From NCBI GenBank assembly GCA_037481835.1, contig JBBFKW010000011.1, forward strand, positions 64,001-128,000: 64,000 bases of DNA, given 5' to 3'. Below the pieces are notes generated by a model, which saw only the letters and a program-made list of their open reading frames with translations, had not been told where the DNA came from and did not search any database. This stretch comes from Desulfosoma sp. (GTDB lineage: Bacteria; Desulfobacterota; Syntrophobacteria; Syntrophobacterales; DSM-9756). Below, in pieces: positions 43,998-63,890 of the stretch. Numbering within the stretch: the stretch's first letter is position 1; each line of letters starts with the position of its first letter. Position numbers and translations under genes: made by a program.

Positions 43998-44029
43998 GGA
44001 AAGACGGCGGCTCCTTCAATTCCTTGCCT

Positions 44030-48260: not shown

Positions 48261-48702
48261 GCGCTTCGGGTTTACCTTGGTCGAGCTCCTCGTGGTGATG
48301 GCCATCATGGCCGTCTCGCTCGCCCTGATTTTTGCCACCGTGGGAAGCGGGCTGGGCAGGAAGCAGGACCGCCGCTTTGCCGTGGAGCTGGGCGGACTCT
48401 TGAGAAAAGCGAGGAACCAGGCCATGGCGGGCGGCGTTCCCGTGGCCGTCGTATTTTCCGAAGAAAGCCGCCGGTGCTGGATCGCCGAACCCGGGGAAGG
48501 GTTCGTGGATATTCCCGCCGAGTTGGAAATCCAGGCGCTGGGACTGCTCCGCGCGGAGAACGTCCTTTACCTCGTCTTCTACCCGGACGGAGCTTCCAGC
48601 GGTGCGGAACTGGAGGTCGTCCGAAGGGGGGCGGTTTTGAGCCGCATTCGGGTGGATCCTTTGACGGGGCTGGCTCTGGCTGTCGTCGGAGAGGGCGGCT
48701 AG
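48244..48702 (+). CDS. gspH: Minor pseudopilin, GspH-like
   Basis: Prepilin motif GFTLVELLVV, ARNQA and FYPDGASSG. Confidence 0.8.
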   Translation: MKSPFERFGFTLVELLVVMAIMAVSLALIFATVGSGLGRKQDRRFAVELGGLLRKARNQAMAGGVPVAVVFSEESRRCWIAEPGEGFVDIPAELEIQALGLLRAENVLYLVFYPDGASSGAELEVVRRGAVLSRIRVDPLTGLALAVVGEGG

Positions 48703-48742
48703 GAGCTCGTCCGATCATGATGCGTCGTCGCTCCGGAGCCGA

Positions 48743-49069
48743 ATGCACGTTGGGGTTCGCTTCGCTCACCCCAACCTACGAATCTGTTCAAGGATATCGG
48801 CCGACGAGATGGAGGCTTCTATGAAAGTCGCGCTCAGAGTGTGAAAAGCCCTGACTTTCATCGTTCGTTGTCTCGCCGGGGCAAGATGCACGTTGGGGTT
48901 CGCTTCGCTCACCCCAACCTACGAATCTGTTCAAGGATGTCGGCCGACGAGATGGAGGCTTATGTGAAAATCGCGCTCAAAGTGTGAAAAGCCCGGACTT
49001 TCATCGTTCGTTGTCTCGCCGGGGCACGATGTTGAGACGTAGGTTGGGGTGAGCGAAGCGAACCCCAAC
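48743..49069. repeat. Two tandem 143-bp units, each starting with a reverse REP, closed by an inverted (forward) REP
   Basis: REPs at 48749-48779, 48892-48922 and 49039-49069. The two inter-REP segments are near-identical. Confidence 0.9.
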
Positions 49070-49086
49070 ACCAACCACTTCATGGG

Positions 49087-49572
49087 ATGAACGGCGTGTG
49101 GGGAACAAATCGGAGGCGCACGGGGCGCCCGGTTGGGCTGAGGCCTGGAAGCTGGACTGGGAATTTGCGGCCCTCGCAGGCCGCACGGGGTTTTACCCTG
49201 CTCGAGGTCTTGATCGCTCTCACGGTCATGGGCATTACCGTGGCGGTCCTCTTTTACGGATTTTCCCAATCGGCGCGGCTGCAAATGAAGGCCCACGAGG
49301 TCATGGAAGCCTCCCGGGTGGCCCGCCTCGTTTTGGCCGACCGCGCCCTTCTTTCGGAGGCCACGGCGAGAGGGCGCCTGAACGGCCCGGTGGATGGGGA
49401 GCCCGGGTGGTTTTACTCCCTGGAAGCGCGCCCGCTGGTGGTGCCCCTGGACAAGCGGGCGGAAGCCTACGAAGACCCCAACATGGTGGAACTGACCCTG
49501 TGCGTGTATTCCGAGGAATCGGGCCGAAGCGGATCGCGATGCCTTGTGGGCTGGGTCGAAAGGAAGGGATGA
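49087..49572 (+). CDS. gspI: Minor pseudopilin, GspI-like
   Basis: RGFTLLEVLIAL prepilin motif and position in the operon. Start uncertain. Confidence 0.75.
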   Translation: MNGVWGTNRRRTGRPVGLRPGSWTGNLRPSQAARGFTLLEVLIALTVMGITVAVLFYGFSQSARLQMKAHEVMEASRVARLVLADRALLSEATARGRLNGPVDGEPGWFYSLEARPLVVPLDKRAEAYEDPNMVELTLCVYSEESGRSGSRCLVGWVERKG

Positions 49573-50309
49573 GGGCGATCCGCGGTTCTTCCCTGAATCC
49601 TTTTTCTTCTCAGGCCGTGGGGCGTTTCGGGAAACGGGCTCCTTCCAAGGCTTTTCGGGGGTTTACCCTGGTGGAAGTCCTGGTGGCCATGGCCCTTACG
49701 GCCATGGTGGTCACCCTGCTCGGCACGGCCATGCGCTCCGGCCTCCTTTCCTGGCGCAAGCTGGGCCTGGAAAATCAAGCGGATATTTTTTCTTACGCCG
49801 TGCCGGCATCCCTCGGGCGCTACGTGGAATTCATGGCCACGGAAGCGACACCCTGGAAAGGCCGCGAGGGGCATCTCTTCCCCCTGTGCGGGTCGGCTCG
49901 AGGCATCACCTTTTACAGCACCTACGGTCCTGCGGGTTCCAGCCGGCAGGGCCTTCGACTCATCGGCTACCTCTACGATCCGTCTCAAAACACGCTGGAT
50001 GTCTACGATGTGGACATCCTAGAAAAAGAAGGGGAGGAGACGGATCTGCTCGCCCTGGCGAAAGGCCTCTTGGAGGGGCGCGACAACGTGGGCCCTCCGA
50101 TGAGCCGTTACGGCGATGTCACTGAGTTCCGCGTGGCCTACGGCGATACGGATTCCTCGGACGGGGCGGGGCAAAACCTTCTGTGGCAGGACCAATGGGC
50201 CTGCGAGGAGAATCCCCGGGCTCCGCGAGGGGTTCGGCTTGTTTTCGGTGTGAGGTCCGGAGCGAGCGAAAGGGTCACGTCATGGATTTTCCCAACCCGG
50301 GTGCCGTAA
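49569..50309 (+). CDS. gspJ: Minor pseudopilin, GspJ-like
   Basis: RGFTLVEVLVAMAL and PRGVRL near the C-terminus. The ATG overlaps the gspI stop. Confidence 0.78.
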   Translation: MRAIRGSSLNPFSSQAVGRFGKRAPSKAFRGFTLVEVLVAMALTAMVVTLLGTAMRSGLLSWRKLGLENQADIFSYAVPASLGRYVEFMATEATPWKGREGHLFPLCGSARGITFYSTYGPAGSSRQGLRLIGYLYDPSQNTLDVYDVDILEKEGEETDLLALAKGLLEGRDNVGPPMSRYGDVTEFRVAYGDTDSSDGAGQNLLWQDQWACEENPRAPRGVRLVFGVRSGASERVTSWIFPTRVP

Positions 50310-51136
50310 GGCCCTTTTCGAGATCCCACAGAGGACGGTTTGCGGGGGAGCCCGGGGCCGTGCTGGTTTTTGTCCTGTGGGCCTTGGCTTTGCTGTCCTT
50401 TTTGGGATTGCAGGTGGCCGTGGCGTCCCGGCTGCGGGCTTGGGAGGCCCTTGGGGCATGGGATCAGCTGCAAAGGGCCGAAGCCCTGCGGTCGGTTTTG
50501 CGCTATTACGCCGTTTCGGGAAAAAACAACAATGCGATGCGGCCTGGAATATGGTATCGGTGGTTTGTGGGCGGCCAGGAAGTATGGGTGTCCTTGGAGA
50601 AAGAATCGTCCAAAATCCAGGTCGTGGAAGCCAACGACGCCAGGCTGCGCCAGGCCTTGACCGATTTTCTGCCCCTGTCGGACCCGCGGGAGGTGGACGA
50701 GCTGGTGGATGCCCTTCTGGACTGGCAGGATGCGGACGATTTGGTCCGGCTTCACGGGGCCGAAGCCGAATGGTACCTTCAAAGAGGGCTGCCGCCGCCG
50801 ACCAATCGGCCCTTCGCGAGCTTGTGTGAAATCCAGAAGGTTCGAGGCGTCTCTCCCGAACTGTTTTGGGGCGATCCTCTGGAAGAGGCCTACACCACAT
50901 GGGAACAGGAAGACGTGGGGGGTGAAACGGACATGATCGTGCCCGAACGGCGGTCCCTGGCGGATCTTTTGACCGTCGTCGGATCGAAGGCGGAACGGGT
51001 CACGGTGCTCATGCCTTATAGAGAAAATGTTTACGAGGTGGCCGTCGTGGTGGGAAAAGCCGGCACCGACGGGTGGGTGGTGGCGGATCGATGTCACGGC
51101 TTTGTCATGTCCGGCTTTCTTTCGGAAAAGTACTGA
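50282..51136 (+). CDS. gspK: Pseudopilin GspK
   Basis: GAVLVFVLWALALL, ESSKI, LVDALLDWQDADD, GAEAEWY and NRPF...VRGVSPEL. Confidence 0.88.
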   Translation: MDFPNPGAVRPFSRSHRGRFAGEPGAVLVFVLWALALLSFLGLQVAVASRLRAWEALGAWDQLQRAEALRSVLRYYAVSGKNNNAMRPGIWYRWFVGGQEVWVSLEKESSKIQVVEANDARLRQALTDFLPLSDPREVDELVDALLDWQDADDLVRLHGAEAEWYLQRGLPPPTNRPFASLCEIQKVRGVSPELFWGDPLEEAYTTWEQEDVGGETDMIVPERRSLADLLTVVGSKAERVTVLMPYRENVYEVAVVVGKAGTDGWVVADRCHGFVMSGFLSEKY

Positions 51137-51214
51137 AAAACGCCTTCAGGGTGGACGATTGGGGGACGCGAGCAGACGGGCGGACGGTCCCCAGGTGGGT
51201 ATCCCCATGGGGAG

Positions 51215-52537
51215 GTGACACGGGCTTTGTTGGCGGGCGCACGCATTCTCGGGGTCTATCTGGATGAAAACCGGCTGGATTATGTCCATGCGGTGAAACG
51301 CTGGGGGCGGGTGCGCCTTGAGCCGCTGGAAAACCGGAAGCCGGCCTGCGGAACTTTGGAAGACGGCGGTCCCAAAGGGCTGGAGACGTTCTTGCGCGAT
51401 CTTTCCCCCAAGTCCGACAGGCGCCTTGCCATCGGCCTTCCGCGGGCCCTGTTCTTCGTTCGGGACATGGCCGTGCCGCCCGTGCCCATGGAAGATGCCC
51501 TGGAGGCTGTGCGAAACGCCTTGCCCATTCATGTGCATCTTCCCCTCGAAGACATTTATTGGGACGTGGATCTGGTGAGGCGCCACGACAAGACGGTGGC
51601 GGCCACCCTAATCTACGTGGAAAAAAAAGCCGTGGACGGCATCCTCTCGGTGCTTTCCGACACGGGCCATCGAGACCGGCTCGAAGGCCTCTTTCCCATC
51701 TCCTTCGGCCTTGCGGCCTGGCTTCGCGCAGGAGGCCGTCCTCCCATGGGGCTGGTGAGGCGGGAGGACGGCTTGCAGGAGGTGCTCGCCGTGGATCAGG
51801 ACGGCGTGGTCCGCACCCGATTGTTGGACCCATCCGAAGGCGTGTGGGGCCGGGATGAACTGATGAGCTTCCTGCAGGCCCAGTGGGGTGTCACCCCTGA
51901 AAACGTCCAGGATTGGACGGCGACCTCGCAGAGTGCCCATCTTCTCGATTCTCCCTTTTCCCATGATTGGCCCCATCCGTCGTTAAATCTCGGGACGGCG
52001 ACCGCCTTCGCCCTTCTCCGCACCGGGCCGATCCTGTGCACGGACGGCAGAGCGCCGCGGGTTCCGGGGTTTCATCCCGCCAAGGTCGTGGTGCCGCTCC
52101 TTTTGGTCCTTGGCCTTACGGCCTGGGGCCTTTCCTGGCACGTGGAACGCCGCACGGCGGCTCTGGAAATGAAAGCGGCGCGCTTGGCGGAAGAAACGAA
52201 ACGGCTGGAAGCCGAACTCAAACCGCTGGAAAAAAACGCCCAGGAAATGGAACAGCTCAAGAAGCTCATCAAGGAGGCGGACGTCTATATCAAGGGAAAA
52301 CCGCGATTCTACGAGCTCCTGAACGACATTGCGGAGCGTGTCCCGGAGGGGACATGGATTTCCCAGTTCAATTATTCCGCGGGCAAGATGACCGCCTCTT
52401 TTCAGAGCCCGGATTCCATGAAGACCATAGAAAAGCTCAGGGAGTCCCCTCTACTCAAGGACGTGAAACTCCAAGGGTCGGTCAACCGCGGTCGGGACAA
52501 CAAGGAAACGTTCAACGTGGTCTTGGAGCTGAAATGA
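51215..52537 (+). CDS. gspL: GspL/PilN-like assembly protein
   Basis: Cytoplasmic actin-like N-domain, single TM, coiled coil, and a PilN-like tail (LLNDIAERVPEGTWI...LRESPLLKDV). Confidence 0.75.
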   Translation: MTRALLAGARILGVYLDENRLDYVHAVKRWGRVRLEPLENRKPACGTLEDGGPKGLETFLRDLSPKSDRRLAIGLPRALFFVRDMAVPPVPMEDALEAVRNALPIHVHLPLEDIYWDVDLVRRHDKTVAATLIYVEKKAVDGILSVLSDTGHRDRLEGLFPISFGLAAWLRAGGRPPMGLVRREDGLQEVLAVDQDGVVRTRLLDPSEGVWGRDELMSFLQAQWGVTPENVQDWTATSQSAHLLDSPFSHDWPHPSLNLGTATAFALLRTGPILCTDGRAPRVPGFHPAKVVVPLLLVLGLTAWGLSWHVERRTAALEMKAARLAEETKRLEAELKPLEKNAQEMEQLKKLIKEADVYIKGKPRFYELLNDIAERVPEGTWISQFNYSAGKMTASFQSPDSMKTIEKLRESPLLKDVKLQGSVNRGRDNKETFNVVLELK

Positions 52538-53130
52538 TTCAATTGTGGGGGCGCAGAACGCGGCGCTGGGCCGGGATCGCCGTTTTGGGGGTGATCCTCT
52601 GGGGGCTGTGGTATTTCATGGACTGTGCCCCCAAGATGGCCTCGGCCTCGGCCGTCGAAGCGTCCGTGGAATTGGAAAGGGCCAAGCAGGACAAGCTCCG
52701 CACCCAGATCGCCAAGATCAAGGAAGACCTGTCCCACCAGGCCCAGATGGCCGAAGAACTGGGCCGGGTGGAACAGCTGCTTCTCGAGGCCAAGAGCCTC
52801 GATGAAGCGGCGGCCAAGATGCAACAGCGCATCCAGGAATCCTTCGAAAAGACGGGCATCCAGGTGCAGGCGTACAACGTTTTGAGTCCCGGGGCGTGGG
52901 AGGAGATTCCCATGGCCCAGGTGGAATTCCGGCTACGCGCCGACGATGCGGCTCTGGCGGGGCTGCTCAAGTTTTTGGAAGACGAGGAAAAGCTGGTGCG
53001 TGTGGAATCCTTGACCGTGGCGTATCGACCGGCCAAGGATTTTCCTCTTTCCGTCACGCTGCGGGTGGGCACGCTGTTTGTGGATACGAAGAGCCTGAAG
53101 ACGTTCTTGGGTCAACCATCGAAAAAGTGA
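52534..53130 (+). CDS. gspM: GspM/PilO-like assembly protein
   Basis: N-terminal TM, coiled coil and LAGLLKFLE...VRVESL, located between gspL and gspD. Confidence 0.72.
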   Translation: MIQLWGRRTRRWAGIAVLGVILWGLWYFMDCAPKMASASAVEASVELERAKQDKLRTQIAKIKEDLSHQAQMAEELGRVEQLLLEAKSLDEAAAKMQQRIQESFEKTGIQVQAYNVLSPGAWEEIPMAQVEFRLRADDAALAGLLKFLEDEEKLVRVESLTVAYRPAKDFPLSVTLRVGTLFVDTKSLKTFLGQPSKK

Positions 53131-53151: not shown

Positions 53152-55449
53152 ATGGGGGTGCGAAGGTCCGCATGGACGATGGGAATGCGAGCCGGGGTGA
53201 TTGTTTTGGCCGTGTGGGTGAGCGGGTGTTCGACGACGCCGTTCCCGCAGCGCCCCACAGGCGGCCCTTCGGCCCCCCCGGCCGTATCGGCTCCGGTCCT
53301 GCCGGCGCCCGAAGGCGCTCCAACCGCCCCGAGGAGCACCGAAGCGGTCATCAGCGCCCCTACTCAGGGGTCCCTGACGAAAGTGCCGCCTCGCGACCTT
53401 TCCTACACGGGCCGCCCGGTCAGCGGGGCCGCTTCGGATGTGGCCGCCAAGGGCCCTCGAAAAGAACCCGAGCAGCAGAAGACCGTGGACATCGACATGG
53501 CTTTCGATGCCGCCGACCTCTACCAGGTGCTGGATGCGACTATTTACCAGCTTTTCGGCGTGAACTACATCGTGGATCCGAGCATCAAAGCCAAGGTCAC
53601 CTTCCGGGCGAAGGGGGCGTACACGAAAGCCGCCTTCCTTAAGCTGCTCAACGATGTGCTCCAGGTGAGCGGTCTCGCCTTGGTGCCGGGTCCCGGGGAT
53701 ATGGTCAAGGTCGTGCGCAAGGATTTGAGCGGCGGGCTGAGCGCCGCGGGCGTCGAAGCCGTTCCCGTGGAAACGGGCTACACGGACGTGACCCGCCTCA
53801 TCCGTCTGCGGTACCTCGGGGCGGAAACCGCCGCAGCCAACATCAAACCGTTCCTTTCCCCCAACGCCGTCGTGGTTCCGGACAAGGCGAGCAACGCCTT
53901 GGTCATTACGGACACGCTGACCAACATCGAAAAGGTGGCCGGGGTGCTCGCCCTGATGGATGTGGATCGCATCCAGGAGATCTCGTGGAGGATCTTTCCG
54001 CTGCTCCATGCGGAGGCGGACCAGGTGGCCCAGGAGCTGACGGAAATCCTTGGAAAGGAAGGCCTTTTCATGCGCCCGGGAACGGAGCCGGGCAGCTTCC
54101 AGGTTTTTGCCATCAAGAGCCTGAATGCGGTTTTTATGGCGTCCCGGTGGTCGTCGATCATCGATCAGGCGGCGCGCTGGATTGCCGTCATCGACCGGCC
54201 CGGTGAAGCCGGCCAAGGTATCTATGTCTATTTCGTGGAAAACGGGTCAGCCGTGGAACTGGCCGATGTGCTCGCCCGGGTCTACGGCCTGTCCACCTCC
54301 ACGTCGCGCACCCTCAGGACCGACACGCGATCGACGACAAGCGTGTCGCGCTCCTCCAAGTCGCTCACCTCCAAGTCCCCCACATCCCTCACGAGCGCGG
54401 CCGGCGGGACCGGCCTTTCCACGGAAAGGCCTTCGGCCGCAGGGGCTTCAACAGCCCCGGAGCGTTCGGCCATCGGCGCGGCCGCAGGGCAGGTGGGCGA
54501 AGAAGTGGCGTTCATCCCCGACGAGGCGACCAATAGCATCGTCATCAAGGCCAGGGAAAAGGATTACCGGATCATCCGAGGTGTCTTGGAAAAACTGGAC
54601 CAAATCCCGCGCCAGGTGCTCATCAATGTGATCATCGCCGAACTGTCTCTTTCCGGTTCGGCGGAATACGGCATCGAGTGGTTCCTGCAGGGCCACTACA
54701 AGGATTACACGGGCCAGTTCGTCCTGGACAACGCCCGATCCCGGGCCGTAAACACCGCCTTGGGAAGCGGCACGGGTTTCGCCGCGGCGGTCTTCGACAG
54801 CACGGATTTCCTCAGAGGCCTCATCAGCGCCTTGGGCAAGGATACCTCCCTGAACATTCTTTCTTCTCCCAACATCATGGCTTCGGACAACAAGGAAGCC
54901 TACATCGAAGTGGCCGAGGAAATTCCCATCGTCACGGGGGAAGTGACGAGCCAGGAGACCACGGCGACTTCGCGGACGATCCAATACCGCAAGACGGGCA
55001 TCATTCTGAAGGTGACGCCGCACATCAATACCAGCGGTCTGGTGAAGATGGACATTTCCCAGGAAGTGAGCCAACCGGGAGAAAAAGACCCGGACCTCAA
55101 GACGACTTCCATCATCAGCCGCGTGGCGGAAACCTCTCTGGTCGTGCAAGACGGCCAGATGATCGTCATCGGCGGTTTGATGCGCAACCGCGATTCGGTG
55201 AGCCGCTCGGGCATTCCGGGCTTGCGCAACGTGCCCCTTCTGAAATATGTTTTCGGCAGCGAGGGTAAGGAAAACTCCAAGACGGAACTCATCATCCTGA
55301 TCACGCCGCGGGTCGTTCGCGATCGCAGGGAAGCGGAAGCCGTCACGCAGGAATTTTCGAAAAAGGTCCAAGGGCTTCGGGAAATGTTGCAGTCCCGGGG
55401 GGCCGTGGTGGAGGAAAACTTTAAAGCTTCCGAACCGGCAGGACGATAA
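53152..55449 (+). CDS. gspD: Type II secretion secretin GspD (lipoprotein-type signal)
   Basis: VSGC lipobox, DEATNSIVI, LDQIPRQVLI, ILSSP, TGIILKVTPHIN, IVIGGLM, GIPGLRNVP and TELIILITPRV. Confidence 0.95.
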   Translation: MGVRRSAWTMGMRAGVIVLAVWVSGCSTTPFPQRPTGGPSAPPAVSAPVLPAPEGAPTAPRSTEAVISAPTQGSLTKVPPRDLSYTGRPVSGAASDVAAKGPRKEPEQQKTVDIDMAFDAADLYQVLDATIYQLFGVNYIVDPSIKAKVTFRAKGAYTKAAFLKLLNDVLQVSGLALVPGPGDMVKVVRKDLSGGLSAAGVEAVPVETGYTDVTRLIRLRYLGAETAAANIKPFLSPNAVVVPDKASNALVITDTLTNIEKVAGVLALMDVDRIQEISWRIFPLLHAEADQVAQELTEILGKEGLFMRPGTEPGSFQVFAIKSLNAVFMASRWSSIIDQAARWIAVIDRPGEAGQGIYVYFVENGSAVELADVLARVYGLSTSTSRTLRTDTRSTTSVSRSSKSLTSKSPTSLTSAAGGTGLSTERPSAAGASTAPERSAIGAAAGQVGEEVAFIPDEATNSIVIKAREKDYRIIRGVLEKLDQIPRQVLINVIIAELSLSGSAEYGIEWFLQGHYKDYTGQFVLDNARSRAVNTALGSGTGFAAAVFDSTDFLRGLISALGKDTSLNILSSPNIMASDNKEAYIEVAEEIPIVTGEVTSQETTATSRTIQYRKTGIILKVTPHINTSGLVKMDISQEVSQPGEKDPDLKTTSIISRVAETSLVVQDGQMIVIGGLMRNRDSVSRSGIPGLRNVPLLKYVFGSEGKENSKTELIILITPRVVRDRREAEAVTQEFSKKVQGLREMLQSRGAVVEENFKASEPAGR

Positions 55450-55565: not shown

Positions 55566-57476
55566 ATGAAGGTTCGGGTGAAGGGCTTGGGGTTTGCCGT
55601 GTGGTGCGCGCTGCTGTGCGCGCTTTTCCTGGTTCCCTGTGCCGGCTGGGGTCAGGATGACAACGGCAAGGACAACGAAACCCTCGTGGTTTCGCCGAGT
55701 TTTGTGGACGTGGGGACGTTCCGGCTCCTTCCCGGGCAGAGCCTGGAACCGGGCTCCTTTACCGTGACGGTCACGGGCGGACCGAAGGTTTCGGATAACC
55801 AAACCTCCACCTTCCTCGCCTCCAGCGATGCGGTCTGGCTCAAGCTGGAACCCACCAAGGGGGACATCCCGGGGACCATCACGGTCACCGTGACCATTTC
55901 CGAACTCATGGAAGGGACCTTTTCCGGGACCATCACGGTGGTCTCCGGGCTCAATCCCGAAAAATCCGCCACCGTGGCTGTCTCTTTAACGGTCATTCGA
56001 ACGCCGGGGAACCTCTTGACCGTCTCCCCGACGGAAATCCAGCTGGATTTCACCACGGCGGATCTTTCGCCGCGGTCCTTCCCCGTCTCCGTCCGCAACG
56101 CCGACCCGACGGACACGACCTTTCTGTGGTCCGCGGCCTCCGGCGTCCCGTGGCTCACGCTCTCACCTTCCGACGGCAGGGGCAACACCACGGCGACCCT
56201 CACGGTGGATCCCACGAAAATCCCCATTCTTGCGGATGAATCTTACGTGGAGGGAAAGGTCGTCTTTCATTCGAGCCTGAACACCGAGCCGGTGGAGCTC
56301 GTGGTGAAAGCCCGGGTCATCCGGGTGTCCAAGGAGCGCTTGACGGTCTACCCCGCGTATCTCTTCTGGAGCCTGGAACGGACTGCGGAAGGGCTTTTGG
56401 GTGAGGCTTCGACGCAGACGCTCTTCGTCATTTCCCAGGAGGCGGGATGGTACGCTCTGGTGGACGTGCCCTTCTTGGACGTCTCCGTGGATCCCGACCT
56501 CAATGTCCCCGGGGCCACGGGGCGGTCCGGATCCATTCAAGTCACCCCCGTCACGTCGGTCCTCCAATCCATGGGATACGGCCGCTTTACGGGGCGCATC
56601 ACCGTCTACAACGCCACCGCCGATGCCTTCCGGATCATTCCGGTCACGGTGGATGTGCGCCGTCCCGGCGAAGCCATATCCGGTCCGCCGGTTTCCGTGA
56701 GCATTTCCCAGACGACCTCCGGCTTCCTGCTGGTGGAAACGGTGGATTCGGCCTGGCTTGAGCTCATTTTGGCCGCGCCGGATCTTGCGATCCGCTACAA
56801 CAGCCAGGCCGCCTGCACCCAGGCCGGAGGCCGCTGGGTGGATCCCGACGGGGCCTTGGGCAGTCTGGACGAAACGTGCAGTCTGGACGAGAAGATTTAC
56901 CTGCTCGTGGCGTTCCCCGATGCCCTTCCCGGCGTCGTCTATGCGCTTTCCGCCCAGCATCCCAACGGGTTCGCCGTGGCGTTTCGAAGCGGCGTGAAAC
57001 AGGAAGGGGCCGATGATTTTTACTACGCCTCGGGCCCCATCGGGTCCATTCCGCTGGGCCCCGTGCGTCTTTTGGGCTTGCAGGGCCGGATCATCGTCAG
57101 TTCCCGCGTGGGGCGGTCCCTGGCCGATGCCGTGGAAGTGCAACGGGCCCAGATCAATGTGCGCACACCCGAAGGCACATGGCTCGTCTCGGAAACCTAC
57201 CAGGGCGGCATCTATGATTATGGGGAGGAAAGACCGCTTCGGCTGCAGCGGGATCCGGGGACTTTCAACTTTAAGGGAACATGGGGAGAGACCCCCGTGA
57301 CGTGCCGGGCCGGAGACGGGGTGCACACGCTTTATGTGCTGGAATTTATCGAAAGAGGTGTGGCATACGTCTATGAAATTACGTCCCTGTCTTCCCAGAA
57401 GATGACGGGACGGTGGACCTTCCAGTACGGGAAACAATGGGAGGCCTTTGAAGCGACCCGGGTCGCTTTCCGGTAA
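55566..57476 (+). CDS. Secreted protein with tandem BACON/Ig-like repeats
   Basis: Signal peptide and AAGGAGG RBS. Repeated beta-rich units L.VSP...SDAVWLKLEP.KG, SGVPWLTLSPSDG and VDVPFLDVS. Confidence 0.78.
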   Translation: MKVRVKGLGFAVWCALLCALFLVPCAGWGQDDNGKDNETLVVSPSFVDVGTFRLLPGQSLEPGSFTVTVTGGPKVSDNQTSTFLASSDAVWLKLEPTKGDIPGTITVTVTISELMEGTFSGTITVVSGLNPEKSATVAVSLTVIRTPGNLLTVSPTEIQLDFTTADLSPRSFPVSVRNADPTDTTFLWSAASGVPWLTLSPSDGRGNTTATLTVDPTKIPILADESYVEGKVVFHSSLNTEPVELVVKARVIRVSKERLTVYPAYLFWSLERTAEGLLGEASTQTLFVISQEAGWYALVDVPFLDVSVDPDLNVPGATGRSGSIQVTPVTSVLQSMGYGRFTGRITVYNATADAFRIIPVTVDVRRPGEAISGPPVSVSISQTTSGFLLVETVDSAWLELILAAPDLAIRYNSQAACTQAGGRWVDPDGALGSLDETCSLDEKIYLLVAFPDALPGVVYALSAQHPNGFAVAFRSGVKQEGADDFYYASGPIGSIPLGPVRLLGLQGRIIVSSRVGRSLADAVEVQRAQINVRTPEGTWLVSETYQGGIYDYGEERPLRLQRDPGTFNFKGTWGETPVTCRAGDGVHTLYVLEFIERGVAYVYEITSLSSQKMTGRWTFQYGKQWEAFEATRVAFR

Positions 57477-57540
57477 AGGAAAGGGCTCGAGGGCGTTCGG
57501 GCCGGACGCGATGGCTCAGGACGGTCGTGAGGAGAGGGCG

Positions 57541-58722
57541 ATGATCAGGAAATGCATGGCGATAGGGCTGTGGCTGTTGGTCCTTTCCGGCTGTGGCACG
57601 TCGGTGATGGAGCTCAAGACGCCCGTGGCCAGGGAATCTTCCGCGGGGGAATTCAAGCGCGTGGTGGTCCTGCCGTTTTCCGACTACACGCCCGAGGATT
57701 CCCTCTACGGCTACTGGAGGCGCAACGTCCTGATCAACGAAGCCCTGACCGATGAGCTCATCCGGTTCGGTTTTTCGTCGGTGATCTATGAAGATGTCAT
57801 CGCCTACCTCCTGGATCGGGGCATCATCCAGGACGCCACACCCGATGAAGGCAAGAGCGCGGCGACGGCCACTTTGGAAAAGGAACTGGCCAAGGACTGG
57901 TCTTCGGGGATGAAGGCGGAAATCCTCCGCGCCATCTACCAAAACGAGGCCAACAGGCGTGCGGCGGAGCCCTACTGGAACCGGGAACGTCTGATCTCCC
58001 TCGACAGCGACGCCGTGAGGGGACTGGGCGCCCGTTTCCGGGCGGACTACGTCCTTCGGGGTCGGGTCCTGGTGTTCCACTCGGGTCAGGAAGACAGCTT
58101 CAACCCGGTCCAGACGGGCCTTCTGCCTTTCTTCTTCAAGGTGGGATCCCGCACGGTTTTCGGGGTCGCCCAGAGTGACACCTACGAGATGATCGACAAA
58201 ATGGCCATCGGAGGCCTGGTCGGGGCCGCCTTGGCCAAGGACAATTGGCCTGTGGAAGACAATGACAAGAAGTTCGTCGGGGCGCCGCGCTTCGGCGGGG
58301 GCCTTGTCCATGAGGAAGACTATGCGAGCTTGAACACGGCCATTTGGGGGGCGGCGGGAGCCGGCATCGCCTTTCTGGCGCACAAGGGAGGCCGCGTGGA
58401 CAGCGCGTGGGTGCAGCTGCGGATGATCGCCCAAGATGCCCGCACGGGCCAGATCGTGTGGGTGAACCGCGCGGAAGTGAAGGTCATGCCCAAAACCGTC
58501 TTCGGGGAAAAAGACGTGGATGTCTTGACCAGCGAAGCGATCCAACACGCCGTGGGCCGGCTCGTGGATAACTTCGTGGCGAGCCTGACCGGCCGGGAAG
58601 TCGTCCGAAGCCGCGTGGACGGCACGTTTTATGTCACGCCCGCAGGCGGGATCCTCGCCCCGGACCGCACCCGGTACGGCACCATCCACGTGGGACCGCC
58701 CGTGGCACCCGCGGTGCAGTAA
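57541..58722 (+). CDS. Outer-membrane lipoprotein, CsgG/PelC/FlgO-like fold
   Basis: LSGC lipobox, KRVVVLPFSDYT, LGARFRADYVLRGRV and VQLRMIAQDARTGQIVW. Confidence 0.7.
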   Translation: MIRKCMAIGLWLLVLSGCGTSVMELKTPVARESSAGEFKRVVVLPFSDYTPEDSLYGYWRRNVLINEALTDELIRFGFSSVIYEDVIAYLLDRGIIQDATPDEGKSAATATLEKELAKDWSSGMKAEILRAIYQNEANRRAAEPYWNRERLISLDSDAVRGLGARFRADYVLRGRVLVFHSGQEDSFNPVQTGLLPFFFKVGSRTVFGVAQSDTYEMIDKMAIGGLVGAALAKDNWPVEDNDKKFVGAPRFGGGLVHEEDYASLNTAIWGAAGAGIAFLAHKGGRVDSAWVQLRMIAQDARTGQIVWVNRAEVKVMPKTVFGEKDVDVLTSEAIQHAVGRLVDNFVASLTGREVVRSRVDGTFYVTPAGGILAPDRTRYGTIHVGPPVAPAVQ

Positions 58723-58792
58723 AGAGGAGCCCATGGACTTTATCGGCGAGGAACGTCCGCAAAGGGTGAAGCTGCTCGGGACGTTCCCGCCC

Positions 58793-58822
58793 TTGACTTC
58801 CTAGCCCCTAGGGGGATATTAA
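58793..58822 (+). promoter_or_regulatory. Possible sigma70 promoter for the subtilase operon
   Basis: TTGACT followed 18 nt later by TATTAA in an AT-rich patch. Confidence 0.4.
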
Positions 58823-58847
58823 GAATTTATTCTGGCAAGCGGCTGGT

Positions 58848-58967
58848 CTTCCGTGCACCAAATCCTCTAGCGCTCCCATTCCCGTTGGGCTCTTTTTCAA
58901 GAAGATTTCTCCCGTTTTTTATCTCGTTCAGAGCGTAGGCTTCCGTGCACCGAACCCTCTAGCGCTC
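58848..58967 (+). repeat. 28-bp direct repeat pair (58848-58875, 58940-58967)
   Basis: CTTCCGTGCACC(A/G)AA(T/C)CCTCTAGCGCTC, with 2 mismatches and a 92-bp period. Confidence 0.85.
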
Positions 58968-59048
58968 TCGTTGTTGCTTCGCTGTATTTCTCGACGGTCC
59001 GTTCCCGTTCTCAGACTAATGCCTTTTACCGGTTCAAAGGAGTCTAGG

Positions 59049-60959
59049 GTGCGATCCGGAATACCTCAACCCCCATACGGAAGCCTCTGCGGGCTGATTT
59101 GCCTCGTGCTCCTTGCGGCCATCGTCTGGGCGGTTTCCATTGGCGCCGCATGCGCGCAGGAACCCCCGCCCTATGTTCCCGGCGAAATTCTCGTGAAGTT
59201 CAAGGACGGGACCTTCGCCCGGCAAGGGGATCGAAGAACCCGGGCCGCTTTGGAAGAGCGGCGCGTGTTACAGGCTTTGGGCCTGCGCGTGGATCGGCAT
59301 TGGCCGGAGCTGGGCATTCACCGTGGCAGATTGGAAGCCGGCGTGACGATGGAAGAAGCCTTGCAAAACCTCCGGTCCCGCCCCGATGTGGAATTCGCCG
59401 AACCCAACTACCTCCGCCATAAATTGGAGATTGTGCCCAACGACCCCTATTACGGCGAACAATGGGCCTTGGAAAAGATGGGCATGCCCCTGGCGTGGGA
59501 GGTGAGCACCGGAAGTGAGGGCATCCTCTTGGCCGTGGTGGACAGCGGCGTGGATTTCGGCCATGAAGATCTGGCTGGAAAGATTTGGAAAAATCCCGGC
59601 GAAGTGTGCGGAAACGGCTGGGATGACGACCACGACGGGTACGTGGACGACTGCTACGGCGTCAACGTCATCACGGGCCGGGGCGATCCCATGGACGACG
59701 ACGGCCACGGGACCCACCTTGCCGGGACCGCCGCCGCGGTGGGCTACAACGGCCGCGGCATGGCCGGCGTGGATTGGCACACGAAAATCCTTCCCATAAA
59801 ATTCTTAGGGGAAGGGGGCGGCAATGTGGCCGACTTCGTGGAAGCCGTCTCCTTCGCCAAGGCGCGGGGCGTTCGGGTCATGAACATGAGCTTCGGGGCT
59901 TATTCCTATTCCGAGGCGGAAAAACAGGCCATCGCCGGAGCTCCCAATATCCTTTTCGTGGCGGCGGCGGGCAACGAACGCTACGACAACGATTTCCATC
60001 CCCTTTATCCGGCAAGCTACGACCTTCCCAACCTCATCTCTGTCGCCTCCAGCAACAAGTCGGACAAACTTTCGGTTTTTTCGAACTACGGGGTCCAAAC
60101 GGTCCACGTGGCGGCTCCCGGCGAAAACATTCTGGGCACCCTTCCCGGAAACGACTACGACAACCTTACGGGAACGTCCATGTCCACGGCCCTCGTCAGC
60201 GGTCTGGCCGCACTGATCTTTTCAATGTATCCTTCAGCAACGCCGGCTGCCGTTAAAGGTCGTATTTTGCGTACAGCGGACCAAAACGACGCCCTTCAAG
60301 GCATCCTCTCGAAAGGACGGGTCAATGCCTACCGAGCGCTTGTCGAACCGGTCGCAGGACCCTACATCTTTCGACTGATCCCCGACAGTGGACCTGCGGG
60401 ATCTCAGGTCGTCATTCGGGGTTGTTCTTTCGGACGCTCTCCGGGGGCCGTTCGTTTCAGCGCCAATGTGCCGGCTGAAATTATCTCATGGGCTGACGAG
60501 GTCATTGTGGTCAAAGTCCCCGATGGGGCCATTCCTGGAGGTGTGGTTGTACACACAGCCGACGGGGCTGAAAGCAACGGGGCTTTCTTCACTGTGACGG
60601 CCAAGATTGCGGGAGGGCTGAGATTTGTCTTTCCTGAAATTCGGGCCAATCCGTCCCATGTACCCATCCTGGTTCTCAGCAACCCTTCAAAAGATCCGGC
60701 ACTAGTTCATCTCCGGGTCATCGAAGCCACTTCAAGGACAAAGACGTTGAAAGTTATCCACTTGGAAGGCTTGGAAAAGTGGATCGAAAACCTGAGCGGT
60801 TACGCGCCCCGCCCTGAGCAGTTGCTTATGGTTGACTGCCAGTCTGAAAGCCTCGTGGGAGCAGCGGTGGTGACATTCAGGGAGGACATGAGAAGTATTT
60901 ACGTCGCGCCTCTCATTAAGGCGCAGCCGACAGATTTTGAGGAGGTGAGTCCCCGGTGA
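59049..60959 (+). CDS. Subtilisin-like S8 serine protease with IPT/TIG domain and an extra C-terminal domain
   Basis: Catalytic triad AVVDSG, GHGTHLAG and GTSMS, oxyanion AAAGN, prodomain YVPGEILVKFK...FAEPNY, and IPT PDSGPAGSQVVIRG...F. AAGGAG RBS before GTG 59049. Confidence 0.93.
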   Translation: MRSGIPQPPYGSLCGLICLVLLAAIVWAVSIGAACAQEPPPYVPGEILVKFKDGTFARQGDRRTRAALEERRVLQALGLRVDRHWPELGIHRGRLEAGVTMEEALQNLRSRPDVEFAEPNYLRHKLEIVPNDPYYGEQWALEKMGMPLAWEVSTGSEGILLAVVDSGVDFGHEDLAGKIWKNPGEVCGNGWDDDHDGYVDDCYGVNVITGRGDPMDDDGHGTHLAGTAAAVGYNGRGMAGVDWHTKILPIKFLGEGGGNVADFVEAVSFAKARGVRVMNMSFGAYSYSEAEKQAIAGAPNILFVAAAGNERYDNDFHPLYPASYDLPNLISVASSNKSDKLSVFSNYGVQTVHVAAPGENILGTLPGNDYDNLTGTSMSTALVSGLAALIFSMYPSATPAAVKGRILRTADQNDALQGILSKGRVNAYRALVEPVAGPYIFRLIPDSGPAGSQVVIRGCSFGRSPGAVRFSANVPAEIISWADEVIVVKVPDGAIPGGVVVHTADGAESNGAFFTVTAKIAGGLRFVFPEIRANPSHVPILVLSNPSKDPALVHLRVIEATSRTKTLKVIHLEGLEKWIENLSGYAPRPEQLLMVDCQSESLVGAAVVTFREDMRSIYVAPLIKAQPTDFEEVSPR

Positions 60960-61429
60960 GACTGATCGGGTGGTTGGGCTTGGTGAGTTTTCTGCTGGTT
61001 TCGTGCGGCGGCCTGCGTTTCGGGGGGCTGTCGCCGGAACAATCCCTGCGTCAAAGGGCCGAAGCGTATTGGACCGCTCAGAAGAGTAAGAACTGGAAAG
61101 AGGTTCGCACCTACGTGGATCCTGAGATTGTCGGGACACTGGATAAATATTTCAAGAGAAGGGAAGAGTCCCAAAGTTATTCCACCATTGTTTCTGCAGA
61201 AATTAAGGATCTGGAGGTTCGAGGGGACACGGGGCGCACGGTCACGGACGTTTCCGCGCAGCTGACCCATCCCCTGTTGGGCGGTAAAGCCTATATGGTT
61301 AAACAGACCGTGGAGGAACGCTGGGTCCGGCGCGGGGGGGTCTGGTACGTGGTGATCGAATCCCCGAGCCTGGAGGATTTTCTGAAAAAGTTACATTCAA
61401 AACCCGGCGATCCAGCTTCGGGGGGCTGA
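60956..61429 (+). CDS. Small lipoprotein (possible NTF2-like fold)
   Basis: LVSC lipobox, LRQRAEAYW...WKEV..Y and E.WVRRGGVWY. The GTG start overlaps the protease stop. Confidence 0.75.
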   Translation: MRLIGWLGLVSFLLVSCGGLRFGGLSPEQSLRQRAEAYWTAQKSKNWKEVRTYVDPEIVGTLDKYFKRREESQSYSTIVSAEIKDLEVRGDTGRTVTDVSAQLTHPLLGGKAYMVKQTVEERWVRRGGVWYVVIESPSLEDFLKKLHSKPGDPASGG

Positions 61430-61523
61430 AGAAAGGAGGTGAGAAAGGCCTGAATGGAAGACAGATCCTTGGATAAACGGGGGAAAAGCTTTTGGTGAGG
61501 TTTTAGAAAACAAAGGAGAAAGA

Positions 61524-61967
61524 ATGATGAGGAAAGTGGCGAGTGTCCTTTTGGTTCTGGCGATGGTCCTTGCGGTCGGGATGGCTTATGCCGGAGATGC
61601 CAGAGTTCCTATGGAACTGCAAGCGCAATTCGAACAACAAACGGGCACCAAGGCCAGCTACTATCTTTGGTTCCCTGTCGTCGCTGAATATCCCAAAGAC
61701 CTTAATTGGACGAACTTTCTCATTCTGTCAAACTATACCGGTGGGAACATCGTAATTGGATGTTGGTACACCTCTTTCCAGAGGACTCAAACCCTTCAGA
61801 CGTACGAACTCGGGAAATTTGAGAAGCTGATTCTGCCCGTCGGGCAAACGGTGGGTTCCAACCAAGGCTACGACATCCTGTGCGGATCGGACAACTTCTT
61901 CGGTGGAGCCGTTCTCTTGTTTGAAGGGGGTTCTCTGGCCACCTCCATGCCGTGGGTTTACTTCTAA
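61524..61967 (+). CDS. Small secreted beta-rich protein (147 aa)
   Basis: AAAGGAG RBS, Sec signal ending AYA, and a downstream terminator. Confidence 0.85.
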   Translation: MMRKVASVLLVLAMVLAVGMAYAGDARVPMELQAQFEQQTGTKASYYLWFPVVAEYPKDLNWTNFLILSNYTGGNIVIGCWYTSFQRTQTLQTYELGKFEKLILPVGQTVGSNQGYDILCGSDNFFGGAVLLFEGGSLATSMPWVYF

Positions 61968-62019
61968 TCAACAAACAAAAGGTCTCGTGAAGCTGTCTTG
62001 AGGCAGGAGTGAGGGGAAT

Positions 62020-62061
62020 GGGTCCCGTGAGCCGGTTTAGATTCACGGGGCCCTTTATTTT
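62020..62061 (+). terminator. Rho-independent terminator
   Basis: GGGTCCCGTGA...TCACGGGGCCC stem followed by TTTATTTT. Confidence 0.75.
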
Positions 62062-62138: not shown

Positions 62139-62681
62139 TTACGGTTTTTGAAAGAAAAAGATGTTGTTCAGGCCCAGCTGAAAGCGCGCATGGCGCTCCA
62201 GGGCAAAACCATGACGACGGAATATGGGGGGGATGCGGCGTATATCGAAACGGTGATGTTCTTCCGCAGATATCCCGTCGGCGAGGCGCAATCCGACAAG
62301 AACCTTGAGAATACCGTCCACGGCAGGGTGAGGCACTGTGGCGATGAGGCGACCGCCTTTGCGCAAGACCCGAAAAGCTTCTGCCGCGAGGGAATCCTTG
62401 TCGTCCACATGTTCCAGAACGGCCAGCATCGTGATGACATCCACGGACGCATCGGGCAGGGGGATTCGGGCACAGGCGCTGCCCCGTAGGAAATGGATTC
62501 GGCCTTCCGTGCGGTTCGGGCACAGGGGGTCCAGACAGAACCCGCTCTGGATGCGTTCTTGGAGAAAATAGAGAAACGAACCATCGTGGCCGCCGATGTC
62601 CAACAGCACGCACCGTCGGGGTATATGGGGCGCTACCACGCGATAGCGCCATATGCGGAGCAACCGGTCTAGGATTTTCAT
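62139..62681 (-). CDS. Class I SAM-dependent methyltransferase
   Basis: LLDIGG, DVITMLAVLEHV and RVLRKGGRLIATVP. Confidence 0.85.
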   Translation of the reverse strand: MKILDRLLRIWRYRVVAPHIPRRCVLLDIGGHDGSFLYFLQERIQSGFCLDPLCPNRTEGRIHFLRGSACARIPLPDASVDVITMLAVLEHVDDKDSLAAEAFRVLRKGGRLIATVPHPAVDGILKVLVGLRLADGISAEEHHRFDIRRIPPIFRRHGFALERHARFQLGLNNIFFFQKP

Positions 62682-62729
62682 CGGGTTTCTCGAATGGTCA
62701 TGACTCCGCTTCGTTCCTATCCGCTTTGG

Positions 62730-63890
62730 TCACCGCGCCTCGATGCGGAACACGGAAAGGAGAAAAGCTGAGAAAACGACCTGAATCCCGGCAGCCATAA
62801 AAAGGCCCGAGGGGACGACCAAGCGCATGACCTGTGACGGGTCCAAGGAGGAGAAGTGCGCGGACCTCCATACCATGAAAGAATAAAAGGCTCCAGCAAA
62901 ACCCAGCAAGAACAAAAGCCCACCCAAGGCGATTCCGTACTCGAGCCGTGCTCGAAAAACGGCGGAAATGGCTTCCGGCTTTACGGGCAGTATGCCCCGC
63001 CGATAGGCATATTCTGTAGAGACCAGGTAAAATAAAACGATTTGAAGTCCCAATAGGCACCCAAAAGCGGCATAGGTCATGGTATGGACATCAAGGACGA
63101 TCCGGCCGAATTGGAGCGGGCGAACAGCCACCGCAAGAAGCAGCAGTAGACTTACCACTGTCAAGAAAAGGCCGGGATAGAAGAAGAGCCACTTAGGACT
63201 GTAAACTAAAAGAAAACGCAGATGGCGCCACCCGTCTCGCCATGTCCGCAGGTGCGAAGGACGCCCCCTGCCGTCGCGGCTGAGCACGGTGGGCACCTCG
63301 GCCATGCGCATGCGTCGTAAAGAGGCCTTCACGATCATCTCGCTGGCGAATTCCATGCCGGTGGTTTTGAGATCCAACGCCTGAACTGCATCTTTGCGAA
63401 ATCCGCGAAGCCCGCAGTGGAAATCCCCAAGATTGGTTCGGAAGAAAAGATTTCCGAGGTAGCTGAGAACGGGATTCCCGAGATAGCGATGGATGAAGGG
63501 CATGGCCCCTGGTTTGATCCCGCCGAGGAATCGGTTTCCGATGACGAAGTCGTAGCCGCTTCGGAGCTTTTCGAGAAAAGGTTCCAGATTCAGAAAGTCG
63601 TAGGAATCGTCGCTGTCTCCCATGATGATGTAAGTGCCGCGCGCCGCGGCTATGCCTCCTAGGAGCGCACTGCCGTAACCCTTCTTCTCCACCGAAACGA
63701 CTCGAGCTCCTAAGGCTTGGGCGATCTGCACGGAATCGTCCGTGCTGCCGTTGTCTGCAACGACCACCTCGCCTCGAACTTTGTTTCGACTGAGAAAGCT
63801 CTGCGCCTTCTTGATGCACGTGCCCACGGTGCGAGACTCGTTGAGGCACGGCATGACAATGGAAAGTTCCACTTCTGAGGTGTCCTTCAC
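62730..63890 (-). CDS. GT2 polyprenol-phosphate glycosyltransferase (DPM synthase-like) with C-terminal TM helices
   Basis: SIVMPCLNE, VADNGSTD, GYGSAL, MGDSDDSYD, DFHCGLRGF, GMEFASEM and WRDGWRHL. Confidence 0.92.
   Translation of the reverse strand: MKDTSEVELSIVMPCLNESRTVGTCIKKAQSFLSRNKVRGEVVVADNGSTDDSVQIAQALGARVVSVEKKGYGSALLGGIAAARGTYIIMGDSDDSYDFLNLEPFLEKLRSGYDFVIGNRFLGGIKPGAMPFIHRYLGNPVLSYLGNLFFRTNLGDFHCGLRGFRKDAVQALDLKTTGMEFASEMIVKASLRRMRMAEVPTVLSRDGRGRPSHLRTWRDGWRHLRFLLVYSPKWLFFYPGLFLTVVSLLLLLAVAVRPLQFGRIVLDVHTMTYAAFGCLLGLQIVLFYLVSTEYAYRRGILPVKPEAISAVFRARLEYGIALGGLLFLLGFAGAFYSFMVWRSAHFSSLDPSQVMRLVVPSGLFMAAGIQVVFSAFLLSVFRIEAR

Follow-up and report, generated by a model that had tools for sequence, protein, structure and literature searches.

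Analysis of the 64,000-nt window from Desulfosoma sp. (the whole stretch of DNA that was analysed) placed five open reading frames, designated A to E, directly 3' of the secretin gene gspD and all on the plus strand (Table 1). An earlier note, made from the sequence, had described five exported products behind a secretin, namely a BACON-like repeat protein (A), a CsgG/PelC-fold-like lipoprotein (B), a subtilase (C), a small lipoprotein (D) and a small secreted protein (E) sharing a domain with the protease. These assignments were borne out, with GspD as the secretin. The gspE, gspF and gspH genes of the preceding cluster matched annotated Comamonas gsp genes in sequence. No gspG was found inside the gsp cluster; TIGR01710 exceeded its cut-off only on contig C12 of the same genome. 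Glycosyl- and methyltransferases had been placed on both flanks of the locus. Those downstream, on the opposite strand, are the only ones adjoining the five genes, whereas those upstream (42291–45214) are separated from A by 10 kb that include the whole gsp operon. The downstream glycan cluster continues on the minus strand past the window end, via wzt and wzm, up to a gene here called S.

The strong ribosome site and terminator ascribed to E were also recovered, as an AGGAG motif and a downstream hairpin with a T run (z −3.2, 2 of 200 shuffles); a consensus terminator scan did not list the same site. Scanning for sigma-70-like consensus sites gave four in 7 kb against 1.6 expected. The site in the B/C gap recurs at the matching place in a genus relative (G002, 10/12) and was not listed in another (G001). 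Because this site separates B from C, A to E probably do not form a single unit, and are better described as two putative modules, A+B and C+D+E.

Table 1. Positions of the genes and sites discussed (window coordinates, unless genome and contig are named)
Feature	Position	Strand	Basis
gspE, F, H, I, J, K, L, M-like genes	45424..53130	+	ORFs; names from sequence likeness and order
Secretin GspD, own lipobox SGC26	53152..55449	+	TIGR02517, 437 bits (cut-off 351); lipobox read by eye
A: signal peptide, three Ig-like (BACON) repeats, unnamed ~250-aa C-terminal domain	55566..57476	+	Pfam, family search
B: outer-membrane-type lipoprotein, CsgG/PelC/FlgT/TraT core	57541..58722	+	AF2 model, fold comparison
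Sigma-70-like promoter site, B/C gap	58793..58820	+	Consensus match only, 9/12
C: secreted subtilase	59049..60959	+	Pfam, catalytic residues; open frame from 58971
D: small lipoprotein, overlaps C stop	60956..61429	+	hhalign, profile hits
E: secreted single ASRAH/DUF5719-superfamily beta-sandwich, short N-terminal helix	61524..61967	+	AF2, fold comparison
Hairpin with T run, terminator-like; separates E from the glycan cluster converging on it	62020..62061	+	Folding vs. shuffles
Methyltransferase and GT2, last genes of the glycan cluster	62139..63890	−	Pfam/ORFs
S: 460-aa secreted homologue of Comamonas 'cell surface protein'	G000:C11:138949-140331	−	tblastn, profile
D': only paralogue of D, directly before S, beyond window end	G000:C11:140393-140956	−	Profile hits

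Genes were counted in 401 genomes of the phylum, and four genomes of the genus (G000–G003) were compared. The full five-gene order beside gspD, whose conservation had been proposed as a check, occurred only in close relatives (two of the four genus genomes) and is thus genus-restricted, whereas A and B are found across the phylum, mostly without C, D and E. B was present in 64 of the 401 genomes and the A C-terminal domain in 27, every one of them B-positive; D and E were each found in two. In G001, gspD, A and B were kept and C was reduced to a 60-codon remnant. S, D and E co-occurred in G000 and G002, and none of them was present in G001 or G003. Identities between relatives of 43–63% for D and 47–85% for E, compared to 89–96% for B, indicate that D and E diverge fast.

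Secretin-associated genes A and B

Two BACON matches in A exceeded the Pfam cut-off, the third repeat being recognized by eye, and A is a single-copy partner gene of B. The lipobox of B reads LSGC18, and its AF2 model superposed on PelC (Z 13.1), CsgG (Z 13.1) and FlgT (Z 13.7), and on TraT, which forms a decameric ring, with Z 9.0 over 172 aligned residues. B had no Pfam match to CsgG, PelC, FlgT, GNA1162 or TraT, and its profile found nothing significant among PDB sequences. With the ring lipoproteins of these families, B has the lipobox and the alpha/beta core (Z 9–14) in common; it differs in its large helical inserts, its linkage to secretins and, in some lineages, a fusion to OmpA. One insert, between two core strands, was modelled at pLDDT 50–70 as a hydrophobic, Gly/Ala-rich helical hairpin (residues 213–230 and 258–282).

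Sixty B loci were surveyed for neighbours. A secretin-type gene lay on the same strand within 300 nt of B in 23 loci and within 6 kb in 29, and A within 4 kb in 19; a secretin or A was near in 42, and neither in 18 (several at contig edges). The secretin was often that of type IV pili, with B behind pilQ in many genomes. These counts bear on the possibility that B is itself a CsgG-like, type VIII-like export pore for A, independent of the secretin. Its similarity to CsgG, the invariable presence of B with A (27/27) and the adjacency of A in 19/60 loci, often with no secretin near, would fit such a pore. CsgG, however, has transmembrane beta-hairpins forming a barrel where the B model has helices. 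Moreover, 37 of the 64 B genomes had no A hit, many have B behind pilQ, and TraT, to which the B fold also aligns, has transmembrane helices according to the available part of its description (PMC11733297). We consider a B pore improbable. A complex prediction for B (residues 19–366) with the A C-terminal domain scored 0.14 against a mark of 0.32; the controls were not folded, so this result is neutral.

A and B would instead form an older module, separate from C-D-E, in which B is an oligomeric outer-membrane lipoprotein held by its helical hairpin and associated phylum-wide with T4aP and T2SS secretins, and A its Ig-repeat partner. The gene linkage was observed directly; binding and a ring are inferred. 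The module is not S-layer-specific, because S was found in 7 of 66 B-positive genomes and 18 of the 60 B loci had neither secretin nor A nearby. In a literature search with most subscription journals outside its scope, no paper joined pilQ and pilM with a downstream lipoprotein in Desulfobulbaceae, none joined secretins, type IV pili and FlgT/CsgG ring lipoproteins, and none addressed the pilQ secretin of cable bacteria.

Subtilase C and the small secreted protein E

The start of C is probably the GTG at 59049, behind AAAGGAG, rather than 58971, as read from the sequence. A prodomain (PF22148), the S8 domain (PF00082, 184 bits), a TIG domain and a single ASRAH/DUF5719-like tail domain follow in this order, and the Asp-His-Ser triad and oxyanion Asn are intact (D191, H246, S403 and N335). 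The homology of the tail to E (hhalign 96.6%, E 6e-10) was missed by plain BLASTP; the tail keeps the Asn of the ASRAH signature and has Phe in place of Trp. A second subtilase lies near another ExeA gene, on contig C1.

E was modelled as a complete eight-stranded sandwich without a donor strand (AF2 pLDDT 87), preceded by an extension modelled with confidence as a helix (pLDDT about 94) and not as a strand. It aligned with TM1070 (1nc7; Z 12.4, rmsd 2.5, 103 residues) and with ASRT (2ii7; Z 8.7); Foldseek gave an E-value of 5e-5 and DUF5719 was its Atlas neighbour, while the E profile found nothing significant among PDB sequences. Within the family, N70, following strand 2, is kept in 23/23 members and W49 of strand 1, which presumably corresponds to W7 of TM1070, in 22/23. 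The eight strands, the Asn after strand 2 and the Trp of strand 1 are those of the ASRAH superfamily (ASRT PF07100, TM1070, DUF5719), which also shares with the C tail the position at the end of secreted enzymes; in G362, an E-like tail (E 8.7e-6) was found on a secreted transglutaminase-like enzyme, with wzm/wzt and a D-like gene beside it. The available part of PMC2739507 describes ASRAH domains as predicted sugar binders on secreted enzymes, forming tetramers, and the secreted families presented there carry two or four copies, whereas E is a stand-alone single domain with an N-terminal helix and no His/Cys signature. The signal peptide of E ends in Ala-X-Ala with no lipobox Cys. A D-x-N-x-T motif for N-glycosylation (residues 59–63) was not conserved in the E family, and a motif scan, which is a weak test, found no convincing oligosaccharyltransferase.

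In the fibre model that grew out of the earlier note, E would be the main building block of a fibre or sheath, polymerized by strand exchange after removal of a propeptide by C, with A as the tip and B and D as anchors. Type V pilins are lipoprotein precursors with a propeptide that a dedicated protease removes and an incomplete fold that a donor strand completes. As in type V pili and curli, a secreted beta-rich subunit, a protease and a lipoprotein of CsgG fold are encoded close together; in contrast to them, E is no lipoprotein and has no open groove, donor strand or amyloid repeats, and the five genes do not travel together. The domain common to E and C and the expression signals of E would suit a fibre, as would the basic residue followed by [VIL]-P after the signal peptide (R/K at position 27 in 17/23, P in 21/23) and a 20-residue segment before the domain that is absent from the C tail. 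A surface polymer also has a precedent in the Delftia nanopods, which are reportedly tubular. Their main protein is NpdA, according to the available part of PMC3110197. However, the E sandwich is complete in cis and aligned with a closed tetramer, its extension is helical, the helix-domain junction has no conserved basic site (K43 in 11/23), and codon use in E, calculated from few codons, was 0.62 compared to 0.76–0.81 in chaperone genes. A and B, furthermore, occur without C, D and E in most genomes, and S, outside the window, is a larger and better candidate for the main subunit. We regard a fibre of E matured by C as improbable.

Lipoprotein D, protein S and a candidate S-layer locus

The S gene lies about 13 kb past E, at the head of the glycan-export cluster converging on E, and 20–30 kb from gspE-M and gspD on the same contig. 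S matched the 'cell surface protein' of Comamonas odontotermitis (tblastn E 1e-5), and the S-family profile did so with E 1.6e-31 over its N-terminal 160 positions; the match to this protein covers only the N-terminal third of S. Weak profile hits on N-terminal or short stretches (L192, L196 with 572 aa, and L200) were discarded, and no match to the S family was found in Pfam, NCBIfam or PDB sequences. The C. odontotermitis locus comprises gspE-M, gspD, a small lipoprotein, the cell surface protein, a PPIase, an ABC permease and ATPase, and methyl- and glycosyltransferases. The available part of PMC10765051 counts C. odontotermitis among the species with npdA and places npdA beside a gsp cluster; from the species list and gene context, its cell surface protein is probably the NpdA orthologue. 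S is likely the major subunit of a surface layer. In G086, from another family, gsp genes, wzm/wzt, a D-like gene and S occur together, with B-A at the end of the glycan operon, and a Nitratiruptor plasmid encodes homologues of S along with D-like proteins and an S8 peptidase without an E-like tail.

Pfam gave only weak NTF2/SnoaL-like hints for D. D aligned with the S-adjacent lipoproteins (hhalign 97.4%, E 1.6e-11), and a profile of E-side D proteins only matched the lipoprotein beside S in seven loci, Comamonas included (E 7.7e-8), with no other match among 920 ORFs and no non-D ORF among 3847 and 13,416 control ORFs. D-like genes adjoined 10 of the 11 S genes examined; D being homologous to these lipoproteins, the D-E pair therefore repeats a pattern of lipoprotein and secreted subunit, and the D family appears to be a lipoprotein family, as yet unnamed, whose genes neighbour NpdA-like ones in three phyla. 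Any relationship of E to the S-layer proteins would lie below significance: E and S profiles compared at 30% probability with signal peptides and, without them, at a score of 17, below the 21 reached by the best shuffle, and neither S-layer domains in profile comparison nor the ~300-aa proteins following other D-like genes matched E significantly.

This lack of significant homology would also suit an independent C-D-E cassette, in which a free lectin-like protein and a secreted protease that has a sugar-binding tail and serves nutrition or biofilms are ordinary T2SS cargo, and A-B is an unrelated secretin accessory. The predicted sugar binding of ASRAH domains, the promoter-like site of the cassette, its lower GC3 (0.59–0.65 from 60100 onward, genome mean 0.72), its loss in G001 and the position of the second subtilase are consistent with such cargo. 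Members of the D family, on the other hand, are otherwise seen next to S-layer-like genes and wzm/wzt. In the four genomes of the genus, D-E and S also occur or are missing as a set, which is weak evidence because these genomes are kin. We consider the independent cassette somewhat unlikely.

We favour, with a probability of about 60%, the reading that this is the locus of an NpdA-like S-layer, exported by the T2SS and associated with glycan. The five genes would make up the accessory end of the locus, C-D-E being an accessory cassette and A-B an outer-membrane module associated with the secretin. Homology and gene order suggest that a dedicated T2SS would export S, forming an S-layer over, or decorated by, the glycan exported by wzm/wzt. 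The C-D-E cassette, transcribed towards and not with the S operon, would copy the D'-S pattern in small from its own promoter-like site: D would act as the tether and E as a minor secreted subunit of ASRAH type, probably a closed oligomer binding the surface glycan or layer, while C, retained at the surface through the domain that it has in common with E, would process or turn over surface proteins. The T2SS-linked, glycan-associated surface structure of the earlier note, with a surface layer among its options, was thus right in spirit and wrong in its details, namely a five-gene order that proved genus-restricted and a main subunit for which S is preferable.

To our knowledge, the attachment of T2SS-exported S-layers to the outer membrane, and the crossing of such layers by pili and cargo, are poorly known. 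The D and B families, both of them unnamed and widespread families of putative outer-membrane lipoproteins, provide two candidates for testing; B is present in about a sixth of the sampled Desulfobacterota genomes and often lies behind pilQ or gspD. A more speculative and rather unlikely extension is that B forms a TraT-like, helix-anchored ring around or beside T4aP and T2SS secretins, an undescribed secretin accessory of Desulfobacterota comparable to FlgT at the flagellar L ring, which would hold the Ig-rod A and so make a portal for passage across the surface layer. In the same reading, the D family would supply the missing anchor that fixes NpdA-type S-layers to the outer membrane, in Comamonas as well as in Desulfobacterota and Nitratiruptor. 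D-E-C would be a second pair of anchor and subunit, in miniature, by which a protease is built into the lattice and can open or remodel it.

Among known systems, the locus most resembles the NpdA-type S-layers with an adjacent T2SS of Paracidovorax, Delftia and Comamonas (PMC10765051, as far as available), which likewise combine a gspE-M,D cluster, a Sec-exported surface protein of ~450–510 aa with a small lipoprotein neighbour, and wzm/wzt with methyl- and glycosyltransferases. It differs in its host, a member of Desulfobacterota, since the available text of that paper names Beta- and Gammaproteobacteria and no 'Deltaproteobacteria'. It differs also in the position of S, which lies beyond the glycan cluster and faces the gsp operon, in the insertion of A-E behind gspD, and in the location of gspG elsewhere. 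The literature search, again with most subscription journals outside it, found no such S-layer for four host-genus names in the titles or abstract beginnings of the 10 papers listed among 47 matches. NpdA-like layers would extend to sulfate reducers, and the S-layer locus can be likened by analogy to those of Slr4 (PMC7821379) and VapA.

Composition and distribution of the five-gene locus

Behind the secretin gene gspD, open reading frames for the BACON-repeat protein A (636 aa), the CsgG/PelC-fold lipoprotein B (393 aa), the subtilase C (frame of 662 aa, likely start at 59049), the small lipoprotein D (157 aa) and the small secreted protein E (147 aa) followed on one strand, as the earlier note had described. 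Pfam searches identified BACON in A and S8 with its prodomain in C (TIG and DUF5719 weakly), while B, D and E gave no match above the cut-off. A promoter-like site was located between B and C, and a hairpin downstream of E. GC content dropped from ~0.61 within this stretch (see table). Elsewhere in the 3.6-Mb genome (G000), an 835-aa subtilase lies ~4 kb beyond a second ExeA-like gene; it is 39% identical to C across S8 and TIG, with a tail that appeared kelch-like by eye.

The gene order beside gspD, previously proposed to encode a protease-matured fibre, was conserved within the genus only. It was complete in G000, a second genome of the genus (G002) and metagenome loci L056 and L058; loci L055, L057 and L059 begin inside C and contained C-D-E. 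G001 carried gspD-A-B plus two short C fragments, and in G003, which has one secretin, neither B nor E was found. Among 401 genomes of the phylum (one sample), B occurred in 64, the A C-terminal domain in 27, E in 2 and D in 2 (single-sequence search). Searching 1.84 billion representatives with the E profile returned 18 matches, mostly stand-alone secreted proteins of ~150 aa. The observations behind the fibre proposal were largely right, including a domain common to E and the protease (E family, 23 rows, against C tail, 7 rows: profile alignment 96.6%, E-value 6e-10), but a fibre built from all five products is unlikely.

The predicted model of E (pLDDT 87) comprises a signal peptide, a helix (30–40) and eight strands, and matched TM1070 (Z 12.4) and ASRT (Z 8.7). 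An Atlas search retrieved DUF5719/ASRT clusters, one row being a cluster with 16% Slr4 members (a lead only). Based on this model, E is assigned to the ASRAH superfamily, described as tetrameric with predicted sugar binding (PMC2739507). Because the predicted sandwich is already complete, donor-strand exchange, as envisaged for a fibre subunit, is argued against. The codon use of E (a small codon sample) was unlike that of a highly expressed gene.

The A-B module and the B family

The 60 B loci compared came from 57 of the 64 B-positive genomes plus G001, G019 and L020. A secretin-type gene lay within 300 nt of B on the same strand in 23 loci and within 6 kb in 29; A was within 4 kb in 19, and either A or a secretin was nearby in 42. 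The other 18 included six from one family and several contig ends. Usual orders were pilMNOPQ-B, pilMNOP-(split secretin)-B, pilP-B-secretin and B-A facing pilQ. The split secretin consists of an AMIN/N0/STN/TPR protein lacking the secretin domain, then a separate secretin.

All 27 A-positive genomes contained B, an overlap partly built in because the A seed was drawn from B neighbours, and counts that include non-independent kin; five family-f2 genomes outside the seed had both, unlinked. A was single-copy, apart from one fragmented genome with two contig-end matches. Its relatives carry ASH/HYDIN Ig repeats in place of BACON, and in seven of them, encoded after B, the terminal domain is a retropepsin-like aspartic protease (L065, L066, L067, L068, L070, L071, L072).

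The B model (pLDDT 74) matched FlgT, PelC and CsgG (Z about 13) and, with the longest alignment of the fold matches, TraT (Z 9.0). Between its two core strands lie two nearly uncharged Gly/Ala-rich helices, resembling the membrane helices described for TraT (PMC11733297). In one lineage, B homologues encoded behind pilQ are fused to an OmpA-type peptidoglycan-binding domain (many besides those tabulated). Proteins of ~1000 aa with beta-propeller and prealbumin repeats, encoded after pilQ-B (L082–L084, L086, L099), and a Big_1 repeat protein after the L061 secretin are candidate pilus adhesins.

Features located in the window (C11:64001-128000) and in other sequences (C11 and C1 are G000 contigs)
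Feature	Location	Strand
308-aa secreted protein with internal repeat, adjoining exeA; no family match above cut-off	window 40124-41050	-
GC 0.49-0.57, mid-C through E	window 60100-62000	
S, 460-aa secreted protein	C11:138949-140331	
D' lipoprotein	C11:140393-140956	
Membrane protein with TPR tail, upstream of S	C11:143311-145347	
Weak GspC-like match (E-value 0.012, far under cut-off)	C11:151241-152107	
Second ExeA-like gene and 835-aa subtilase	C1:8687-17128	
Split secretin after pilMNOP	L020:4284-8170; L061, L073-L075, L077, L087	
B-OmpA-type fusions	L089:10996-12567; L090:10851-12509	
Transglutaminase-elicitor-like enzymes	L196:7861-10413; L204:2071-3764	

The D family and the secreted protein S

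The genes for methyl- and glycosyltransferases that face E are the last of an operon-like run which extends along C11 past the end of the window, ordered TPR membrane protein (presumably TMTC-like), two exported proteins, the D paralogue D', the secreted protein S, wzm, wzt, methyltransferase, MBOAT, AlgX-like, PIG-L/GT2, GT2 and methyltransferase. S had 190 homologues and no match in family databases. It matched a 'cell surface protein' of Comamonas odontotermitis, encoded after gspE-M, gspD and a small gene and before PPIase, ABC exporter and methyl/glycosyltransferase genes. PMC10765051 lists this species among npdA carriers, with NpdA a demonstrated S-layer protein and npdA adjoining a gsp cluster; PMC7821379 describes the same arrangement for Slr4. 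The connection of S to NpdA runs through the Comamonas protein, by species listing and gene arrangement rather than NpdA sequence.

E-side D and S-side lipoproteins aligned at 97.4% (E-value 1.6e-11; 37% with just two S-side rows), and a profile from E-side D alone found, in Comamonas, the small gene that separates gspD from the surface protein gene (E-value 7.7e-8). A D-like gene adjoined S in 10 of 11 cases examined, the exception (G406) having an N gap there, and the only two in G000 precede E and S. A wider D profile matched 22 of 73 chosen genomes; 16 of 27 A-positive genomes had matches vs. 3 of 37 B-positive, A-negative ones (10/21 vs. 3/37 with seed genomes removed). Of the further D-like genes, most have wzt-like genes in their vicinity; six precede secreted 290–370-aa proteins, one S-related at 93.6%. 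One 50-kb region of G086 holds gsp, wzm/wzt, D-like, S and B-A genes, and G362 encodes a transglutaminase-like enzyme with an E-like repeat tail near a D-like gene. As judged from sequence, D is the probable tie between the five-gene locus and S.

Secreted transglutaminase-elicitor-like enzymes are encoded next to D-like lipoproteins and could act as cross-linkers of a surface layer. On a 35-kb Nitratiruptor plasmid (L159, NZ_AP023064.1), a PPIase-lipoprotein-S module occurs twice, together with a prepilin-type gene and genes for an S8 peptidase and an O-glycosyltransferase.

A probable variant of the T2SS S-layer locus

Taking the observed genes, domains, distributions and neighbourhoods together with the modelled folds, the locus is best read as a variant of the T2SS S-layer locus that includes two lipoprotein families still to be named. 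S would form the surface layer, anchored by D', D would anchor E, C would be kept at the cell surface by its own tail, and B may make a ring with secretins and bind A. S occurred in 7 of 66 B-positive genomes vs. 1 of 86 others, and S, D and E were all found in G000 and G002 but in neither G001 nor G003. Counting against the S-layer reading, S was not found in most B genomes, E resembled S in short motif order only, its profile score lying inside the range of shuffled controls, and E shows the codon use noted above.

Among known systems, the S-layer genes for NpdA, Slr4 and VapA have T2SS clusters alongside. Known ASRAH members are tetramers, E being represented here by a model, and lipoproteins of the CsgG/PelC/TraT fold form rings, as B may do.
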